Source of the DNA: Deltaproteobacteria bacterium
Lineage (GTDB): Bacteria; Myxococcota_A; UBA9042; DTJE01
Direction: 5' to 3'
Length of the DNA stretch: 46,426 nucleotides
Assembly (NCBI GenBank): GCA_016784945.1
Contig: JADHTP010000001.1
Coordinates: forward strand, 1-46,426
The notes beneath the pieces were generated by a model, which saw only the letters and a list, made by a program, of their open reading frames with translations, searched no databases and had not been told where the DNA came from. Position numbers and translations under genes: made by a program. Below, in pieces: positions 1 to 33,582 of this stretch; position 1 is the first letter of the stretch; every line of letters starts with the position of its first letter.

Positions 1-165
1 CCAGTGCCCGCCCGAGATTGGCGCCCGTAGCAGCGACGGAGTCGCCCCTACAAGGGGGGTCATAGGGGGGCTGCGCCCCCCTTGAGTAAGAGAAGCGCCA
101 AGCGCAGGGCGGCACGCCAGTGCCCGCCCGAGATTGGCGACTCGGGTGATTCGCCCCTACAAGGG
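1..165. repeat. Direct repeat at the window edge: two copies of a bipartite 23-nt + 15-nt element about 116 nt apart
   Basis: The identical 23-mer CCAGTGCCCGCCCGAGATTGGCG occurs at 1-23 and 117-139. Each copy is followed by TCGCCCCTACAAGGG (42-56 and 151-165). The internal spacer is 18 nt in one copy and 11 nt in the other, a 7-nt difference. A GGGGGG-CTGCG-CCCCCC hairpin lies at 65-81 between the copies. The element may continue upstream of the window. Confidence 0.7.
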
Positions 166-199
166 CAAGCGATGAACGATTGGCGATAAGCGATGGGCG
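165..199 (-). repeat. Tandem heptanucleotide repeat, 5 units
   Basis: Read on the minus strand: CGCCCAT CGCTTAT CGCCAAT CGTTCAT CGCTTGC. It lies just upstream of the ATG at 216. Same CGYNNAY-type family as the loci at 8301, 19462, 25727, 27813 and 33553. Confidence 0.7.
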
Positions 200-8288: not shown

Positions 8289-8300
8289 CTCCCTTCGGGG

Positions 8301-8342
8301 CGTCTACCGTCTACCGTCTATCGTCTGCCGTCCGCCGTCAAG
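8301..8342 (+). repeat. Tandem heptanucleotide repeat, 6 units
   Basis: CGTCTAC CGTCTAC CGTCTAT CGTCTGC CGTCCGC CGTCAAG, filling the 62-nt gap between the recF stop (8351) and the murA start (8288). Confidence 0.85.
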
Positions 8343-8350
8343 AAAACAGG

Positions 8351-9454
8351 TCAATCCCTGGACGTGAACCGCCCGGCCTCCGTGTGGAATACCCGACATC
8401 CGGTCGGCTGACCACCCGGCACCGAGGTCCCGGTGAGGAAACTCTGGCCCGGATAGGCAGCCAGGTACTCCACCACCCGATCCTGGCGCGTGGCGTCCAG
8501 GTCCGCCAGGGCGTCATCCAGGACCAGCACGGGATCCACCTGGAGGTTGACGCGGAAGACCCGCGTCTCCGCCGCCTTCCAGGCCAGCATCAGCACCTTC
8601 CTCTGGCCCCGGCTGGCGTGCCCTCGCGCACGGTGGCCCAGCAGGTCCACCCGGAGGTCATCGGTATGGGGCCCCACGGTGGTCCGGCCCAGGGTCGTGT
8701 CCGTTGACCTCCGCTCGTGCAGACGCCGGCGAAGCAGGGCCCCGATGTCACCCCGGCCCGTGCCCTCGGGGATCCAGCGGGAGGCATACGACACCGCCAC
8801 TGACAGGTCTTCACCGGCCATGTCGTCCAGCGTTCCGGGCAGGTGCTCCAGGAGGCTGTCGAGGGCCTCCTTGCGGGCCAGAACCACCTGGCCTCCGGCC
8901 TCGGCCATGGCCTCCTCGCAGGCGTCCAGCACCCCAACGTCGAAGGACCCGCCCGGGGACTTCAGGATCTCGTTCCTTTCTCGAACCAGCTTGGAATACC
9001 GGCCTATCAGGGCCGTCCGGGACGGATCCAGGAGCACGGCGAACCGGTCCACCAGGGTCCGGCGTCCATCGGGACCGCCCTCGAGGATGGCCGGATCGTC
9101 GGGACTTAGAAAGGCCACGGTGACCCTGGACAGACATTCCCGCGATGAACGGACGGGATGGTCGTCCAGGGTGACCCGTCTGAAACCGCGCCCCACCCCG
9201 ATCTCGATGGTGTGCTCCCCCCGGTCGCCGGAGACCGACCCCAGCAGGTGGGCCGACTCGCTGTCGTGGGAAACCAGGTCCGTGGTCCGTGAGGTCCTGA
9301 AGGACCTGAGCCAGGACAGGAAGGTGATGGCCTCCACCAGGTTGGTCTTGCCCTGACCGTTGGCCCCCACCACGAGGTTCATGCCGGGACCGGGGGACAC
9401 GTCGGCCTGTCCGATGTTTCGAAAGTCGGTGACCTGGAGGCGGGTGATTCGCAC
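8351..9454 (-). CDS. recF: DNA replication and repair protein RecF
   Basis: 367 aa. MRITRLQVTDFRNIGQADVSPGPGMNLVVGANGQGKTNLVEAI is the RecF N-terminus with its Walker A motif. The C-terminal Walker B/D-loop is LVLDDALADLD. It lies directly downstream of dnaN. Confidence 0.92.
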   Translation of the reverse strand: MRITRLQVTDFRNIGQADVSPGPGMNLVVGANGQGKTNLVEAITFLSWLRSFRTSRTTDLVSHDSESAHLLGSVSGDRGEHTIEIGVGRGFRRVTLDDHPVRSSRECLSRVTVAFLSPDDPAILEGGPDGRRTLVDRFAVLLDPSRTALIGRYSKLVRERNEILKSPGGSFDVGVLDACEEAMAEAGGQVVLARKEALDSLLEHLPGTLDDMAGEDLSVAVSYASRWIPEGTGRGDIGALLRRRLHERRSTDTTLGRTTVGPHTDDLRVDLLGHRARGHASRGQRKVLMLAWKAAETRVFRVNLQVDPVLVLDDALADLDATRQDRVVEYLAAYPGQSFLTGTSVPGGQPTGCRVFHTEAGRFTSRD

Positions 9455-9480
9455 AGTGCGTGCGCCTGTGGGCGAAAGGC

Positions 9481-10602
9481 CTAGACCCTGACGGGCATGA
9501 TGAGTTGCAGTATCCCCTCGTCCTCGGGCGACACCAGCGCCGTGGCCGAGGAGTGGTCCTTGATCTTGACCGTGACCTCCTTGCCGGGCAGGGCGTTCAG
9601 GGCTTCGATGAGATACCGGTTGTTAAAGGCAATCTCCAGGGGTTCCCCGGTGTACTCCAGGTCCACCTCGCTGTGGGCGTCCCCCTTGTCCGGGTCCTGG
9701 GCCATGATCTGGATTCGACCGGCCTCCAGGGTCAGCTTGATCAGCGGGGTCTTTTCGGCGGAGATCACCACCGCGGCCCGCTGCACGGCCCGCACGATCT
9801 CCGAGCGATCCACGGTGAAGGACCACTTGAACTCGTCGGGCAGGACCCGCATGTAGTCGGGGTACTCCAGTTCCACCTGGCGGACCAGGAGGTACCCCGA
9901 CTCCACCAGGAAGACCACGGCGTTCCTCTGGAAGCCCAGGGTGACGTCGCCATCCACGTCGGCCAGGAACCTCTTCAACTCGTTGACACCCTTGCGGTGG
10001 ATGATCACCTCCAGGGCCTGCTCCACCTTGGCGTTTTCCACCAGGCGGGACAACCGGGATAACCGGTGGCCGTCCGTGGCCACCATGTCCATCCGCACGC
10101 CCCCGTCCGCGGATGCCACCTTCATGCAGATGCCGTTCAGATTCGGGCGCCCTTCGTCCGCCGACATGGTGAAGCCCACACGCTCCGACATCTCCAGCAG
10201 GAGGTCGCAGGACACCTTGACCTGGTCCGTTATCTTCGGTTCCTGCCGTTCGGGCAGGTTGGCCGGCAGGATTCCCGGCACCTTGTAGTCCGTGCGCCCG
10301 GCCACCAGTTTCGCCCAGTCATTGTCCATGGCCTTGAGGGTAACGGGCGCATCTGGAAGCATCCGGGAAGCGTCGAACAGGCTCCGCCCGGACAGGGCCA
10401 TCTGGCCTTCCGTCTTGACTTCGGCCGGGAAGGTGGTGACCAGGGTCACCTCGTATGATTGAGCCGTCAGGCGCACCGACTCCTTGCCAACGGATTCCAG
10501 TTGCACGTTCGCCATGACGCTGGACAGGTTCTTCTGTTCCGGGATGCCCTGCGCCTTGTTCAACGCGGTATTGAAATCCTTCTTTGCTGCGATGAATTCC
10601 AT
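9481..10602 (-). CDS. dnaN: DNA polymerase III beta sliding clamp
   Basis: ORF 9481..10734 trimmed to the ATG at 10602 (MEFIAAKKDFNTALNKAQGIPEQKNLSSVMANVQLE...). At 373 aa it has typical DnaN length and N-terminus. The dnaN-recF order is canonical. Confidence 0.9.
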   Translation of the reverse strand: MEFIAAKKDFNTALNKAQGIPEQKNLSSVMANVQLESVGKESVRLTAQSYEVTLVTTFPAEVKTEGQMALSGRSLFDASRMLPDAPVTLKAMDNDWAKLVAGRTDYKVPGILPANLPERQEPKITDQVKVSCDLLLEMSERVGFTMSADEGRPNLNGICMKVASADGGVRMDMVATDGHRLSRLSRLVENAKVEQALEVIIHRKGVNELKRFLADVDGDVTLGFQRNAVVFLVESGYLLVRQVELEYPDYMRVLPDEFKWSFTVDRSEIVRAVQRAAVVISAEKTPLIKLTLEAGRIQIMAQDPDKGDAHSEVDLEYTGEPLEIAFNNRYLIEALNALPGKEVTVKIKDHSSATALVSPEDEGILQLIMPVRV

Positions 10603-10754
10603 GATCCAGACCACCGTTGAAGACCTGGCTAATCCTAGTCTCAATTCTTCGACTCCGTCAACCGACGTGACCGACGGGGTCGATGGCCTGTCGCGGCCCC
10701 GGAGACGGGTCTTCTGTTTCGCGTTATCCGGCATCCCTGCTAATATGGAGCGCC

Positions 10755-19461: not shown

Positions 19462-19491
19462 CGCTGATAGCCTATCGCCTATCGCTTGTCG
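19462..19491 (+). repeat. Tandem heptanucleotide repeat, about 4 units
   Basis: CGCTGAT AGCCTAT CGCCTAT CGCTTGT CG, between the convergent stops of the MBL gene (19459) and the HAD gene (stop codon 19479-19481). It overlaps the last HAD codons. Confidence 0.7.
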
Positions 19492-25726: not shown

Positions 25727-25768
25727 CGTCTACCGTCCACCGTCCACCGTTGATCGTTGATCGTTTGC
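25727..25768 (+). repeat. Tandem heptanucleotide repeat, 6 units
   Basis: CGTCTAC CGTCCAC CGTCCAC CGTTGAT CGTTGAT CGTTTGC, starting 7 nt beyond the start codon of the minus-strand CruF-like gene, in a divergent intergenic region. Confidence 0.85.
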
Positions 25769-25955
25769 AGGGGATGGATCCTGGAGTGCGCAAGCTTGCG
25801 CTTTCCGAGGCGGAGCAGCTCCGCCGGATCCACAGCGGCAGCAAGCAGCCGCACTCCAAAACACGACACGGCCCATCCGGGTAGATGACGTCCACGTTCA
25901 CGGAAGACGCCCCCCATGGTTGACATCTCCCACGCGACTGCGGGATACACAAGAT

Positions 25956-27818
25956 ATGGCAGGGGACGACACGCCGGGCACGGGCTTGCTGGAAAAGCTC
26001 TCGGGGGGCCTCGAACACGATCTTCTTCGGGACGCCTTGGTCCAACCCATGTCCCCGGTCGGTGCGCCCGACCCGGGTGACTACGCCACCGTGGCCTTTC
26101 ACCTCCTCCTGATGGGCGCCCTCGCGACGGCCCTCCTCCTGTGGCGGGATTCCGGACCCGCCTTGCGACACACCCGGTGGTTGGTGGCCGGGTTCGCGCT
26201 GGCCTTCCTGGCGACGGCCTGGACCGCCCTGGCTGGGCTCACCGATCCGTTCATCATCGACCAGATGGTGGTGTCCGTGGATGGAAATACGGGCAAGAAC
26301 CTCACCCTCCTTTATCATCTCTTCCATCCCGAACCGGTTCGGACCAGCCTCATTGCCGTGGTCCGGCACCTGTCCGGTGCCGACGGCCTTCCCCCCATGG
26401 TCACGGTGGCCCGCCTGTCGTTCCTGTGCTCCGTGGCATCGCTTCTGGGACTGGTCCTGGCCGGGATCCTGTGTCGCGCCGGCCTGGCGGTCACCGTGAT
26501 GGCGATCGGCGCCTGGGGACTCAGTTCCCTGTTCCTGGTCAACGCCTTCTCCGACAGTCCCCTGCCCTTCGTGGCGTTCTACGCCGCAGGCGTGCACCTG
26601 GCCGGGGCCGTGATGATGGATCGGCGGGCGCCCCTGTTGCCCCGGGCTGCGGCCCTGTTGCCGTTTATCGGCTTTCAGTTCCTGGTGGCCGACATGAGAC
26701 CGGAACTCCTGGTGGTCTGGATCCCGGCGGACGCCCTGCTCCTGGCCTCCTGGGTGAGCCGCCAGGGACCGACGGACCTGGTGGAGCGCCTGGCCGAAGG
26801 TCTGTTCGGCTTCGCGCGCCTGGTGGCCGGCCACTGGAAAAGGATGGCCCTGGTCCTGCCCGTTGTCGCCGTGGTCCTGATCGCACCGGCCCTGCTGGTG
26901 AAGGCGCCGTTCAGCCTGTACGACGAGCCCAGGACCGCCCAGTGCTTCCCGTTCTTCCTGTCCACCGTGCTGTGGGGCTACTTCGTCCCGACCCTGGCCA
27001 GGATGGCCTTCTGGGTGACTCCGGCGCTCTTCTTGTTCCTGGTGGCGGGACTCCTGTGGAGCCTGGTCAGACCCCGGGTCATGCTCGGGGCCGGACTGGG
27101 GGTGGCCGCCGTACTGTCCGCCCACTGGATGCTGGCACTGTCACACACAGAGTTCAACTTCATCCGGGTGGTGGGGCCGGTGGTCCCCGTACTGGTCCTC
27201 CTGGGACTGTCGGCCGCCGGGTCGTGGAACCGGAACCAGCGCCTGCTGGCGGCCGGATTGTGCGGCGCCGTCCTCCTGTCCTCCTACGGAATGCCCGACA
27301 CGCTCCACTGGGCCGGGGAGCCGTCCCGGGGACTGGAACACCCCCTGAGCGGCCAGGACAACGTGGGGGAGGCCCGTTTCGTATCCCGATACCTGTCTCA
27401 GAATCCGGGCGTGTGTCTCATCGCGCCGGTGCTGGTGGACGAATATTACGGCCGGGACGAGGTCCCGCGCCATCGGCAACTGGTGGACCTGCTGGTGCTC
27501 CGGAACGGGTCAGCGGTCCGTTTCGGCAAGGCGCTGGGCACGGCGGACCACCCACAACTCATGGAGGCCGTCAGGGCCGTGGCGTCTGGCTGTCGGGAAA
27601 GCCGGGTCTACCTGGGACTGGACTGTACCCTCCAGGGGGTGACGTATTGTGATGCCCTGCGTCCTCACCTGGCCTATCACCGGGGCGAAAACTTCCAGGG
27701 ACCTCAGTACAGCGCCCCCCGCTACGGCCGCCGGACCCTGCGCCGGGACATCGGCGCCTACTTCATCAACGATCCCTCCGTGGGACCGCCGTCGGTGGTG
27801 CCATCGGAGGACCGTTGA
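25956..27818 (+). CDS. Large polytopic membrane protein with a C-terminal soluble domain, function unknown
   Basis: ORF 25920..27818 with the first ATG at 25956 (620 aa from there). At least 10 hydrophobic segments are followed by a soluble tail of about 170 aa (GEPSRGLEHPLSGQDNVGEARFVSRYL...). The overlapping minus-strand 476-aa ORF has biased H/Q/G/R composition and is judged a shadow. Confidence 0.55.
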   Translation: MAGDDTPGTGLLEKLSGGLEHDLLRDALVQPMSPVGAPDPGDYATVAFHLLLMGALATALLLWRDSGPALRHTRWLVAGFALAFLATAWTALAGLTDPFIIDQMVVSVDGNTGKNLTLLYHLFHPEPVRTSLIAVVRHLSGADGLPPMVTVARLSFLCSVASLLGLVLAGILCRAGLAVTVMAIGAWGLSSLFLVNAFSDSPLPFVAFYAAGVHLAGAVMMDRRAPLLPRAAALLPFIGFQFLVADMRPELLVVWIPADALLLASWVSRQGPTDLVERLAEGLFGFARLVAGHWKRMALVLPVVAVVLIAPALLVKAPFSLYDEPRTAQCFPFFLSTVLWGYFVPTLARMAFWVTPALFLFLVAGLLWSLVRPRVMLGAGLGVAAVLSAHWMLALSHTEFNFIRVVGPVVPVLVLLGLSAAGSWNRNQRLLAAGLCGAVLLSSYGMPDTLHWAGEPSRGLEHPLSGQDNVGEARFVSRYLSQNPGVCLIAPVLVDEYYGRDEVPRHRQLVDLLVLRNGSAVRFGKALGTADHPQLMEAVRAVASGCRESRVYLGLDCTLQGVTYCDALRPHLAYHRGENFQGPQYSAPRYGRRTLRRDIGAYFINDPSVGPPSVVPSEDR

Positions 27819-27861
27819 TCGTGTAGAAGGCGACGGGGCGTGGAGCGTCTACCGTCTACCG
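27813..27861 (+). repeat. Heptanucleotide repeat locus (2 + 2 units)
   Basis: CGTTGAT CGTGTAG (27813-27826), then a 19-nt gap, then CGTCTAC CGTCTAC (27846-27859). It lies between convergent stops at 27818 and 27870. It shares the 12-mer GCGTCTACCGTC with the loci at 8300 and 25726. Confidence 0.7.
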
Positions 27862-27869
27862 AAAGTGAA

Positions 27870-30449
27870 TCACTCCGCGCTCTTCTTGCCGACCCGGTGT
27901 TCGGGGTGGTCATAGAGCCGGACGAAGTCGGCGGGCACGAATTCGGTGTCGTAGGCCCTGGACAGGATCTCGTGGGGTCGCCCCTCTGGTCGGCCCTGAT
28001 CGGGCCAGCCCAGGACGCAGGAGGTCCCCTGTTCCGGCGCTCCCAGAAGGGTCAGGGCCACTTCTTCCTCTTCGGGCAGAAGGTCCAGGGTCAGGGGGGC
28101 TTCCAGGAGGCCCCGCGCAACCTCCAGATCCACCGGGCAGATGAATGCAAGTCGGGTGGGGCCCGGTTTCGGGCGCCGCACGGGCACCTGGCGGGCCTCC
28201 ATGAAGGTCATCCCTTCCACGCTCGCTCGGTTGATGGCCTCGAGGTCCGGGGGGTTGTCATCCCGGGTGAGGAGGACCGCCGTGATCCACTCGCCGGCGC
28301 CCCGGTATCCCACGGGCAGGGGCGGGCGGTAGGTGATCCGGGGCTGCGGGTGATATCCGCCGGACAGGGCCGACTTCAGCCCAGCACGCCGCAGGATGCG
28401 CGGTATATGCTTGACCAGGTCCTTCTGGGACAGCCAGGCCGAGCGGCCGTTCCGAGTGAACACGAAGTGCCAGAAAGTTACGTCATCGGCCGGCGCATCC
28501 ATGGTCGGTGCAACGGTGCCGATGTCGCCTTCCACCAGGGACGCCGCGTCCCTCACCGTGGCTGCGCGTTCGACGGCCAGGGCCTTGGCGTCGCAGGGGG
28601 TGCCGCACTGATAGCAGAGGACCTTTTTCGCCGACTCGAAATCCGCGGCCTCGGGCCGGCGTCCCGGCGTGGACGGCTTCTCGCAGGGGGCGAGAGGCTT
28701 GCCCTTGAAGGCCCGCTCCCTTTCCGCCAGCAGAAACTCGCGGGTCACCAGGGGATCCACCACTTCCCAGGGCAGGGGGGCTCCCGTGGGGAGAGGACCG
28801 AGGAAGGCCTCCCGGTCCACGCCCGCCTCCTCGAAGGCCTCGTCCCACCAGTCGTAGCGGACGATCTCGTCCCAGTTGTCGAACCGGCACCCCTTGAGGA
28901 AGGCCCGCCGTATCACGTCACCCACGCGTCGGTCCCCCCGGGCCATGACACACTCTAGCCGGGACATGGGTCCGCTGGAAAACTTGAGGTGCACGCCCTT
29001 GCCCAGGGCCTCGCGCAACAGGGTACGACGGTCATCGATCACCCGGATCGAAGCCATGCCCTCCCATTGGAAGGGGGTGTGGGGGCGGGGCACGAAGAGG
29101 CCCACGGCGGCTGTAACCCTGGCCCGCGGGGTGATCTGCCGTCCCGTCTTCAGCACCTCGCGGCATAGACGGGCCACGGCCATCACGTCGTCTTCCGTCT
29201 CCGTGGGCAGACCGATCATGAAGTAGAGCTTGATTCGCTGCCAACCCGACCCGAAGGCCCGCCGGGCCGCCTCCACCAGGTCTTCGTCCCTCACGTTCTT
29301 GTTGATCACGTCCCGCAGGCGCTGTGACCCGGCCTCCGGTGCAAGGGTCAGCCCCGTAGCCCGGACCGCCCGCAGGTCTTCCAACACCTGATCGGACAGC
29401 CCGTAGGCCCGCAGGGAGGACACCGTCAGTGTCACGCCCGTGGGGGACAGGGCGCTCGAAAGGGCATGCACCAGGGGTTCGAGGCCCGGGTGATCCGAGG
29501 GCGACAGGGACCCAAGGGACACCTCCTCGTATCCCTGGGCCTTCACGTTTTCCAGCGTGGTGTGAAGCACATTGGACGGCGAACGGTCCCTCAGGGGCCG
29601 GTAGGTGTATCCCGCTTCGCAGAACCGACACCCCTCGGAGCACCCGCGGGATATCTCCACGGAAGTGCGGTCGAACACGGCCCGGTTCCAGGGCACCACG
29701 GTTCCCAGCGGCTGGGGAAAGCGGTCCAGGTCGTCGATGAAAAGCCGGGTCACGCGTTCCGGGGCCCCCGACTTTGGGCTCGCCTGCAGCCAGCCCGTCC
29801 CGGAGTCGGGCCTGGCGTCGTACAGGGAAGGGCAATAGATGCCCGGCCGACGAGCCAGCGCTTCCAGTCGTTCGGACCGGGAAGCGCCTTCCCGCCGCAT
29901 CCGGCCCGCCAGCCTCAGCACGTCGGGCAGGTCGTCTTCGGCCTCGCCCACCAGGAAGGCATCGAAGAAGTCCGCCATGGGCTCGGGCCGCAGGGCACAG
30001 GGTCCTCCACCCAGAATGACGGGGCCGCTTTCATCCCGGTCCGCCGTGGTCAGGGCGATCCCGGACAGGTCCAGCACGTTGAGCACGTTCGTGTAGGACA
30101 ATTCGTGCTGCAGGGAGAAGCCCACCACGTCGAACTCGGCCAGGGGCAGGTGGTTCTCCAGCGAGACCAGGGGCAATCCCCGTTCCCTCAACTCGGCCTC
30201 CATGTCCGCCCAGGGGGCATAGCACCGCTCCAGTCGAAGGTCCGGCTCCCGGTTCACCAGGTCGTAGAGGATCTGGGAACCGGTGTGGGACATACCCACT
30301 TCATAGACGTCGGGGAACACCAGAACCATGGAGGACCGGTCCCCGACGGGCGCCTTGACCAGGGTGCCGAACTCGCCGCCTGCGTAGCGGGAAGGCGAAC
30401 GGACCCGGTGTAGAAAACCGGCCCAGGGATGTGATGGATTCACCTTCAT
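27870..30449 (-). CDS. Radical SAM protein fused to a radical-SAM-associated C-terminal domain (TIGR03960-like + DUF2344-like)
   Basis: 859 aa. The CxxxCxxC cluster is EISRGCSEGCRFCEAGYTYRP, in a B12-binding-like/radical SAM N-terminal half. The long C-terminal extension resembles the partner protein usually encoded next to this family. The 4-nt overlap with the upstream RNase gene suggests an operon. Confidence 0.7.
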   Translation of the reverse strand: MKVNPSHPWAGFLHRVRSPSRYAGGEFGTLVKAPVGDRSSMVLVFPDVYEVGMSHTGSQILYDLVNREPDLRLERCYAPWADMEAELRERGLPLVSLENHLPLAEFDVVGFSLQHELSYTNVLNVLDLSGIALTTADRDESGPVILGGGPCALRPEPMADFFDAFLVGEAEDDLPDVLRLAGRMRREGASRSERLEALARRPGIYCPSLYDARPDSGTGWLQASPKSGAPERVTRLFIDDLDRFPQPLGTVVPWNRAVFDRTSVEISRGCSEGCRFCEAGYTYRPLRDRSPSNVLHTTLENVKAQGYEEVSLGSLSPSDHPGLEPLVHALSSALSPTGVTLTVSSLRAYGLSDQVLEDLRAVRATGLTLAPEAGSQRLRDVINKNVRDEDLVEAARRAFGSGWQRIKLYFMIGLPTETEDDVMAVARLCREVLKTGRQITPRARVTAAVGLFVPRPHTPFQWEGMASIRVIDDRRTLLREALGKGVHLKFSSGPMSRLECVMARGDRRVGDVIRRAFLKGCRFDNWDEIVRYDWWDEAFEEAGVDREAFLGPLPTGAPLPWEVVDPLVTREFLLAERERAFKGKPLAPCEKPSTPGRRPEAADFESAKKVLCYQCGTPCDAKALAVERAATVRDAASLVEGDIGTVAPTMDAPADDVTFWHFVFTRNGRSAWLSQKDLVKHIPRILRRAGLKSALSGGYHPQPRITYRPPLPVGYRGAGEWITAVLLTRDDNPPDLEAINRASVEGMTFMEARQVPVRRPKPGPTRLAFICPVDLEVARGLLEAPLTLDLLPEEEEVALTLLGAPEQGTSCVLGWPDQGRPEGRPHEILSRAYDTEFVPADFVRLYDHPEHRVGKKSAE

Positions 30450-33552: not shown

Positions 33553-33582
33553 ATGAACGACAAACGTCCAACGACGATGGGT
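33553..33582 (-). repeat. Weaker heptanucleotide repeat locus
   Basis: The minus strand reads CCATCGT CGTTGGA CGTTTGT CGTTCAT. It lies in the lgt upstream region, divergent from tolQ. It is more degenerate than the other loci. Confidence 0.4.

Follow-up and report, generated by a model that had tools for sequence, protein, structure and literature searches.

Intergenic heptamer arrays of a deltaproteobacterial genome as possible arms of cassettes resembling 23S rRNA intervening sequences

The intergenic DNA of an uncultured Deltaproteobacteria bacterium (GTDB lineage Myxococcota_A; UBA9042; DTJE01) contains a large family of short arrays of degenerate tandem heptanucleotides (heptamers). Several of these arrays lie in one stretch of 46,426 nucleotides of contig JADHTP010000001.1 (assembly GCA_016784945.1; hereafter the window), among them six units at positions 25727-25768. 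Analysis of the whole assembly suggests that the arrays may well be the arms, or surviving single arms, of selfish cassettes similar to intervening sequences (IVS) and of gene-less derivatives of such cassettes, a reading that we hold with middling confidence. The cassettes would be of the same kind as the protein-coding IVS of 23S rRNA genes.

An intact gene between two heptamer arms

The genome under study (G000) is a metagenome-assembled genome (MAG) of 2.73 Mb in 247 contigs (63.7% GC, 68% complete), of which the window is contig C167. On contig C168 (18851-19168) an intact gene for a 122-aa protein of the four-helix-bundle family PF05635/TIGR02436 (131 and 127 bits) lies in the spacer that separates ssb from the next protein gene, where two inward-pointing arms of AGTCGAT/AGTCAAT units flank it exactly. 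The complete cassette measures 516 nt, has a GC content of 51.5% vs 63.7% for the genome and is predicted to fold with a terminal stem of ~34 bp (dG -165 kcal/mol, z -3.4). It lies outside 23S rRNA helix 25/45. The closest PDB entry to the protein is XCC0516 of Xanthomonas campestris (2GSC, E = 1e-22), and there is a weak match to Avd, an accessory protein of diversity-generating retroelements which binds nucleic acid and reverse transcriptase.

Further members of the family are present in the same genome. Behind a second PF05635 copy come a period-7 array and a pair of repetitive extragenic palindromic (REP) sequences. Three degraded copies lie between inverted arrays of hexamers (CGTGGA/CGTCCA; Table 1), the unit of which is the heptamer minus one base. 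A conserved leader, CAGGGCAAACGCATCAAAATGTTGAAACAGAAGCTACGCACGACC, precedes the partial copies and is also found beside some heptamer arrays.

A published counterpart of such a cassette is the 23S rRNA IVS of Coxiella burnetii (PMC4990558), a selfish insert with an S23p open reading frame (ORF) and a 28-bp terminal stem that is cut by RNase III. Its arm consists of AGAAGA followed by two or three tandem GACAGAT units, their number being strain-variable, and the cut falls at the first repeat (PMC4990558). The C168 cassette shares with this IVS, and with that of Leptospira, the small size, the PF05635/S23p-family ORF and the terminal inverted repeats that form a stem (~28 bp in Coxiella). Its GC content is likewise below that of the host, and it starts TAG-AGAAGAG-(heptamers), in the manner of the Coxiella arm. 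Unlike the Coxiella IVS, which occupies helix 45 of 23S rRNA, it sits between protein genes after ssb, and its arms are wholly made of heptamers, and gene-less arrays accompany it by the hundred. Cleavage by RNase III is established for the Coxiella IVS, and is supposed for the cassettes of G000 by analogy.

Outside G000, genome G038 possesses a PF05635 homologue which is 50% identical in protein, has no nucleotide similarity and carries heptamer arms of its own. In the same-genus sister species G001 (~70% nucleotide identity to G000) no PF05635 match was found. Among genomes with multi-locus arrays the family is present in 4 of 4, vs 9 of 37 others (Fisher p = 0.007, for genomes that are related and therefore not independent). 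Hexamer arms in other relatives are no more than suggestive of a link to PF05635, since coding DNA has period-6 repeats too.

Abundance and unit frame

A period-7 array was defined as at least 3 units with at least 85% self-identity. G000 contains 218 of these, 199 of them intergenic, at densities of 0.72/kb in intergenic and 0.008/kb in coding DNA (~90-fold). All gene boundaries rest on our own crude caller (2,179 genes, 90% coding). As 52 arrays are at contig edges and the MAG is incomplete, array counts are lower bounds. Period 7 is the outstanding tandem period: the intergenic density of arrays with period 5, 6 or 8-15 is lower by a factor of 10-100, with 1-18 arrays for each of periods 8-15 (6 at period 8, 18 at period 9). 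Runs of three or more CGYNNRY units number 151 in G000 vs 6-10 in each of six third-order Markov genomes. Runs of three or more NGACYAT units, a second flavour, number 40 vs 0 simulated. The first-pass annotation of the window had proposed a dispersed intergenic family and had named two findings that would speak against it, a lack of excess over random expectation and an equal frequency in coding DNA; the counts show neither and bear the proposal out, and the intergenic bias together with the Markov comparison rules out chance or a codon-usage artefact.

The arrays take up ~11.8 kb, or 0.43% of the assembly. Their most common length is 3-4 units and the units are degenerate. The consensus, which has a fixed direction, is 5'-[C/A]G-[T/C]-[C/T]-N-A-[T/C]-3', and nearly all unit consensuses (CGTTGAT, CGCCTAT, CGTCTAC, CGTCGAT, CGCCCAT, AGTCNAT and others) fit [C/A]G-Y-Y-N-A-Y. 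Constancy is highest at G2, A6 and T7, as measured after the phase was chosen by those same positions, while positions 4-5 vary, also within arrays. No Rfam family was found to coincide with the arrays.

Placement, polarity and pairing

Of 120 arrays, 95 have the 5' end closer to a gene than the 3' end (p = 8e-11), and the median distance to the gene boundary is 21.5 nt for the 5' end vs 79 nt for the 3' end. There is no overall strand bias relative to genes. Some units contain stop codons, and polarity might thus have been an artefact of ORF calling; a test by subfamily rules this out, since polarity is kept in every subfamily whatever the in-array stops and amounts to 31:3 where the CG-strand has no stop. 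Up to 30 nt from a stop codon, 57 arrays are co-oriented with the gene vs 17 opposite; up to 30 nt from a start codon, 4 are sense vs 17 antisense. Randomised placement of arrays within their own spacers predicts 50.4 arrays at most 30 nt from a stop and 20.7 at most 10 nt from one, vs 76 and 44 observed. Near starts (up to 30 nt) the same randomisation reveals a depletion, with 26 observed vs 34.8 expected. Convergent spacers have 1.1 arrays/kb, tandem ones 0.62 and divergent ones 0.52, and ten genes have their stop codon in the TGA of a first unit.

Arrays also occur in inverted pairs. Close pairs are convergent in 10 cases and divergent in 0, and among pairs with an interior of 150-1500 nt, 9 are inward-pointing vs 2 of the opposite geometry. 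Eight array pairs are predicted to fold (dG -27 to -46 kcal/mol, z -2 to -5.5); single arrays fold no better than shuffled sequences (z +2 to -2). A search for one larger conserved element round every array was unsuccessful, the pooled flanks being uninformative beyond a trailing CG.

These distributions bear on the possibility that the arrays are direct repeats acting in cis, bound by a regulator of transcription or translation, as proposed for the TAACTGA repeats of Beggiatoaceae and the recF/recO heptamers of Nostoc. Such a role would agree with the three window arrays that end 6-24 nt from a start codon and with published reporter data from Nostoc, in which deleting the heptamers had modest effects (bioRxiv 10.1101/2022.06.06.494920). 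It is nevertheless very unlikely here, given the depletion near starts, the enrichment near stops, the highest density in convergent spacers, the lack of a functional relation among neighbouring genes and the G001 orthologues that lack arrays.

Elements joined to the arrays

The sequence on the 3' side of an array is often repetitive. The 3' flank recurs elsewhere in G000 for 48 of 149 arrays, the 5' flank for 5 of 149. In about one third of arrays the 3' neighbour is an inverted array, a GTAG-type REP hairpin, a mosaic element of ~128 nt or a conserved core of ~35 nt.

The GTAG-type REP/REPIN (REP doublet forming a hairpin) family of G000 comprises 121 intergenic GTAGGGG heads. At least two types exist, with the main palindromes ACGGTCTCCAGACCGTCCC and CGACTCACCCGAGTCGCCC and with compensatory stem variants. 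Arrays point toward the REP heads, by 20:0 when upstream of them and 15:2 when downstream. One type, REP-A, occurs 31 times in G000 and is missing from 40 relatives. A gene for a REP-associated tyrosine transposase (RAYT) was not detected (no PF01797 match in the 68%-complete MAG).

The mosaic element is itself found in tandem (period 127-130), and its core has ~60 copies in the genome. It is made up of a REP head, a GACGACTCCGTCGTC hairpin, the heptamers ATGGACT ATTGACT ATCGACT ATGGACT and a GGGGGGCGCAGCCCCCC hairpin. The conserved ~35-nt core (AAGGTACCAGATCCCTTCACGAGATCCC, with two direct AGATCCC) belongs to a foldback-like element, in which it lies between two inward-pointing heptamer arms. 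At least 12 copies of this element were found, with arms of 1-16 units, and the arm flavour (AG-type or GG-type) tends to match within a copy. In all, terminal inverted repeats such as MITE and foldback transposable elements have are formed by ~17 close array pairs and at least 12 core-bearing copies.

The contents of inward-pointing arms are very different from one another, which would be expected if the arrays were hairpin landing pads on the host side for unrelated small mobile elements (REPs, the 35-nt core, the PF05635 gene and other cargo). The pads would have been born by slippage and kept for host use at gene ends, for example for binding a single-strand nucleic-acid-binding protein or guarding mRNA 3' ends. 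REP dimers inside longer palindromes are known in some species (PMC3733652), Xanthomonas arrays have the same polarity, and the arrays are stable across near-identical assemblies; the conservation of unit positions 2, 6 and 7 beside variable positions 4-5 would also fit, subject to the prior choice of phase by those positions. We regard landing pads as unlikely, as the sister species manages without arrays, the orientation of single arrays is left unexplained and no candidate binding protein has emerged.

Lineage distribution and stability

An affiliation of G000 with Myxococcota is indicated by MYXO-CTERM sorting tails, which score above the cut-off on at least 7 of its proteins and on 0 in 14 control genomes, and by Sandaracinaceae being its best distant protein match. 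The MAG has no 16S rRNA gene and no assembled rRNA. Relatives of intermediate divergence were sought by protein scans of genome and metagenome contigs, which gave at most 47% identity; exact-protein look-ups returned near-identical assemblies only.

The multi-locus pattern was seen in only two of 95 genomes of the class, G000 (~16 loci of five units or more) and G028 (~7 loci, CGCYGAC). G038 has ~30 loci of CGCTAAC/CGCTAAT. In the sister species the arrays are missing at 3 of 3 orthologous junctions examined. The junctions lack arrays, yet the ~70% identity is too low to place exact borders.

Within G000, a unit is identical to its neighbour in 27% of cases vs 3.3% expected. Together with the 1-16 units seen in arms of different copies, this indicates that arrays become longer and shorter through slippage, the duplication of units in place. 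The order of units in CG-type arrays is peculiar to each locus. The only module that recurs in fixed order is of AGTC type (15-17 loci), as it is carried along by the mosaic element.

Adjacent-unit identity and locus-specific orders invite a simpler account, in which the arrays are plain long simple-sequence repeats made by slippage of DNA polymerase, without mobility or function, and tolerated only outside genes (7 is not a multiple of 3). The very strong intergenic restriction agrees with it, as does the 19462 site of the window, where G001 has two proto-unit-like heptamers vs four units in G000. Slippage alone is quite unlikely: it explains neither the one unit frame common to ~200 loci, nor the polarity toward gene ends, the convergent pairing and the repeated 3' flanks. 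The 22-fold gap to a sister species of similar GC is also left unexplained (80 period-7 arrays/Mb in G000 vs 3.6/Mb in a 278-kb sample of G001).

At 11 loci the arrays are unchanged in at least six independent samples with 99.8-100% identity, including two assemblies which differ by 10-12 single-nucleotide polymorphisms over 7 kb. The slippage polymorphism in unit number for which the first-pass annotation suggested comparing strains is therefore absent from these loci, and the arrays are not hypervariable. Contingency loci, in which a hypermutable unit number switches adjacent genes, would be suggested by tandem short repeats close to gene starts and by a unit number that varies among paralogous copies and in the Coxiella IVS. 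Hypervariable loci of this sort are ruled out by the unchanged arrays, and with degenerate units, short arrays and a placement mostly past stop codons the contingency explanation as a whole is close to untenable.

Relation to published heptamer families

Over-representation of heptanucleotides in bacteria, and the idea that slippage favours 7-nt units, go back to Mrazek 2007 (as cited in PMC4692102). Individual families have been published for Xanthomonas and Nostoc (PMC4692102) and for Beggiatoaceae (PMC4679880), and STRR heptamers (short tandemly repeated repetitive sequences) of Calothrix PCC 7601 are cited in PMC4692102. The G000 arrays are a further case of this established intergenic class, which has no accepted origin or function.

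The closest parallel is with two repeats treated by Rehm et al. 2015 (PMC4692102), GGGAATC in Xanthomonas campestris/axonopodis and GGGGA(C/T)T in Nostoc PCC 7120, which likewise form dispersed intergenic arrays of ~4 units. In Xanthomonas they lie on the sense strand less than 50 bp past stop codons, often overlapping them, or antisense upstream of ORFs, and nearby pairs are always convergent (PMC4692102), all as in G000. X. campestris has ~70 such convergent pairs, and most of the Xanthomonas arrays are transcribed. Rotated by one base, GGGAATC reads CGGGAAT, with the same CG-NNN-AT frame and the same polarity. Unlike the Xanthomonas repeat, G000 units such as CGTTGAT, CGCCTAT, CGTCTAC and AGTCNAT contain no GGG runs; lacking G-tracts they cannot form a G-quadruplex, and the shared anatomy is therefore independent of G-quadruplexes. 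G000 also differs in the coexistence of many unit variants and in the ties of its arrays to REP hairpins, a conserved core and a bracketed gene, none of which have been reported in Xanthomonas. One Xanthomonas array does adjoin a PF05635-family gene, as in the C168 cassette: in the supplementary table of Rehm et al., GGGAATC repeat #15 lies between XCC0517 and XCC0516 and overlaps the XCC0516 start codon. No published paper was found that joins the Xanthomonas and Coxiella facts to genome-wide heptamer families.

The STRRs of heterocystous cyanobacteria resemble the G000 arrays in that several heptamer families are present in the non-coding DNA of one genome. This resemblance had been noted for the window in the first pass and is upheld, although G000 belongs to another phylum than the STRR hosts and has a GC-rich genome. 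The STRR units TGGGGAC, TGGTCAT and TGTTGAC fit NG-NNN-AY in one rotation or strand, and TGTTGAC differs from CGTTGAT/C at the first base only. We know of no polarity or pairing rules described for STRRs.

In marine Beggiatoaceae the TAACTGA repeat forms ~170 intergenic sets of 2-6 copies in one genome (MacGregor 2015, PMC4679880), has a similarly patchy phylogenetic distribution and falls into the G000 frame when read as TGATAAC. Its sets lie mostly a few nt upstream of starts and almost never form inverted pairs, whereas G000 arrays favour stops and pair convergently.

REP, REPIN and BIME (bacterial interspersed mosaic element) sequences (PMC3733652, PMC3116915) are comparable to the arrays in their location after genes and in convergent spacers, in their lineage-specific abundance and in forming mosaics with other motifs. 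The arrays differ from REPs in being tandem direct repeats without a GTAG head and palindrome, and single ones are not predicted to fold. The association of REPs with heptamers seen in G000 is not reported in either of these two papers.

In one rotation or strand, the NG-NNN-AY frame also fits Xanthomonas CGGGAAT, Nostoc TGGGGAT, Beggiatoaceae TGATAAC, Coxiella IVS AGATGAC, G038 CGCTAAC and G028 CGCTGAC; Nostoc TTTTGAA is outside it. A frame shared across phyla is suggestive, being recognised post hoc in a pattern that ~36% or less of random heptamers would fit.

Arrays and other repeats in the window

The heptamer sites which the first-pass annotation had listed (165-199 on the minus strand, 8301, 19462, 25727 and 27813/27846) are all present as described, save that the 19462 array ends 2 nt before the 19491 given there (Table 1). 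The site at 33553-33582, which it called weaker, indeed consists of three degenerate units. The 12-mer GCGTCTACCGTC, said to be common to three loci, was located at 8300, 25726 and 27845. A 7-nt indel between the repeat copies at 1-165 does appear as a gap of 7 columns in the alignment; the gap separates two different REP-stem variants and is not a clean heptamer slip. The arrays were also thought to sit in every kind of intergenic context, and their spacers are indeed varied, but the placement is not indifferent, with fixed polarity, convergent pairs and composite elements. All five clear window arrays keep the polarity rule. The judgement that a simple promoter or terminator role is insufficient agrees with the lack of predicted promoter-like or terminator-like sites beside the arrays at 25.5-28.1 kb. 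No Rfam families were found in the window, and no ORF lies between its own arrays.

Table 1. Heptamer arrays and associated elements (window coordinates unless a contig is named)
Feature	Position	Strand	Units, make-up or context
Heptamer array, 5 units	165..199	-	CGCCCAT CGCTTAT CGCCAAT CGTTCAT CGCTTGC
GTAG-type REP hairpin	136..160	-	GTAGGGG head (cccctac at 154-160, + strand) and palindrome GGCGAATCACCCGAGTCGCC
Mosaic-element copy	34..109	-	GGGGGGCGCAGCCCCCC hairpin and REP head; 94.7% identity to ~128-nt consensus
Heptamer array, 6 units	8301..8342	+	CGTCTAC x2, CGTCTAT, CGTCTGC, CGTCCGC, CGTCAAG
Heptamer array, 4 units	19462..19489	+	CGCTGAT AGCCTAT CGCCTAT CGCTTGT
Heptamer array, 6 units	25727..25768	+	CGTCTAC CGTCCAC CGTCCAC CGTTGAT CGTTGAT CGTTTGC
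Heptamer pair	27813..27826	+	CGTTGAT CGTGTAG
Three heptamers	27839..27859	+	CGTGGAG CGTCTAC CGTCTAC; convergent spacer
Weak degenerate array	33553..33582	-	CGTTGGA CGTTTGT CGTTCAT; divergent spacer upstream of tolQ-like gene
Partial PF05635 copies	C57:1584-2258, C122:14763-15437, C145:11668-12391		hexamer arms CGTGGA/CGTGAA ... CGTCCA/CGTTCA
Other mosaic-element copies	C59:27568, C84:24, C89:2854, C99:13434, C110:17248, others		
Core-element copies	C17, C41, C51, C60, C70, C154, C163, C211, C215, C216, C228, C240		

The 25727-25768 array has its 5' end 6-24 nt from the start codon of a minus-strand membrane-protein gene (24863-25702/25720) and thus corresponds to the antisense strand of that gene; on its 3' side is a 187-nt spacer with palindromes. 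Just 3' of the array, at 25775-25832, two perfect palindromes, GCGCAAGCTTGCGC and GGCGGAGCAGCTCCGCC, are enclosed by a direct GGATCC...GGATCC pair, and at the far end of the spacer (25877-25903) there are three hexamer units, GACGTC CACGTT CACGG, possibly of the kind that brackets the partial PF05635 copies. The 8301-8342 array occupies nearly all of the spacer between recF and aroA, which is 62 nt long. With its 5' end 12 nt from the start of aroA, it lies antisense to that gene and immediately upstream of the ribosome-binding site, and it is missing at the orthologous junction of G001. The neighbouring dnaN and recF genes (8351-10614) are adjacent to each other and followed by aroA, with no dnaA beside them in the window.

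At 19462-19489 the array begins 3 nt past the TGA stop of a co-oriented gene for a metallo-beta-lactamase-fold protein, and relative to G001 it is an insertion or expansion of ~27 nt. The TGA in the first unit of the pair at 27813-27826 is the stop codon of the gene at 25956-27818, and the units at 27839-27859 precede a minus-strand radical-SAM gene (27870-30449). The 165-199 array has its 5' end 16 nt upstream, in antisense, of the start (216) of a PMT_2 glycosyltransferase gene. The REP hairpin at 136-160 is directly continuous with its 3' end, so that the order is array> then REP>. A further GTAG-type REP/REPIN site is found at 44-50.

Discussion

If the arrays are arms or remnants of IVS-like cassettes, the history of the family could be outlined as follows. 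Paired arms in a transcript would, by analogy with the Coxiella IVS, fold to a stem of 25-35 bp, and RNase III would cut it, so that the insert would be removed or insulated at the RNA level. Cassettes would settle at gene ends, where harm would be least; the family may have burst recently in the G000 lineage, and array length would change through slippage. Single arms are probably without function.

Several observations weigh against this cassette origin. About 85% of the arrays are single. Excess complementarity on the 3' side of single arrays is weak and confounded by composition, and it is doubtful that most of them are hidden foldbacks. An intact PF05635 cassette with CG-type arms, the type of the window, is absent from the assembled 68%. 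CG-type arrays were not copied from one master, and no movement or length change was seen among assemblies with 99.8-100% identity. No target-site duplication or conserved flank was seen at the arrays, and neither a RAYT/IS200-IS605 Y1 transposase nor TnpB was found in the 68%-complete MAG. Three PF05635-rich genomes lack CGYNNAY arrays. Near PF05635 genes of relatives, tandem-repeat bases are only slightly more frequent than elsewhere (7.1% vs 5.2%); the measure is crude, coding DNA having period-6 repeats as well, and the enrichment does not reach significance.

Two further points concern what the arms enclose and where they begin. Inward-pointing arms bracket other contents as well, and arms could be a target for inserts rather than a part of them. 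At C208:5034-5554, inward-pointing arrays of CGTTGAT flank an orphan ORF of 129 aa, which has no Pfam match and two segments predicted to be hydrophobic. This ORF may be a further cargo of such cassettes. The cassette origin also leaves unexplained an enrichment of TAG beside array 5' ends. Where a stop codon lies 0-20 nt upstream of the 5' end it is TAG in 29 of 41 cases vs 32% genome-wide, and arrays adjoining gene starts have an excess of TAG upstream of them too. An exact GTAG site at the 5' border, as target or for cleavage, is not supported: the nucleotide before the adjoining TAG is about as often G as C, and the first unit follows at a variable distance of 0 to 19 nt.

A broader claim, unlikely in its full extent, can be attached to the cassette origin. 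The PF05635 protein, a relative of Avd, might recognise, maintain or spread (NG-NNN-AY)n arms, and its cassettes with their gene-less descendants might be a common cause of the heptamer excess in bacteria. As one joint claim, this would cover Xanthomonas GGGAATC, the STRRs, Beggiatoaceae TAACTGA, the Coxiella IVS arm and G000, with one frame and, where tested, one polarity.

Heptamer excess has been known since 2007 and STRRs since 1990, neither with an accepted origin or function. The genome studied here offers a clean natural contrast, with ~80 arrays/Mb, REPs and PF05635 cassettes set against a sister species that lacks REPs and PF05635 and has next to no arrays. The recurrence of the Xanthomonas-type anatomy in another phylum, in units without G-quadruplex capacity, removes the G-quadruplex explanation for it. 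The physical link of the arrays to an IVS-type cassette joins Xanthomonas and Coxiella data that had never been connected before, and makes the question of their origin open to experiment in a tractable organism.

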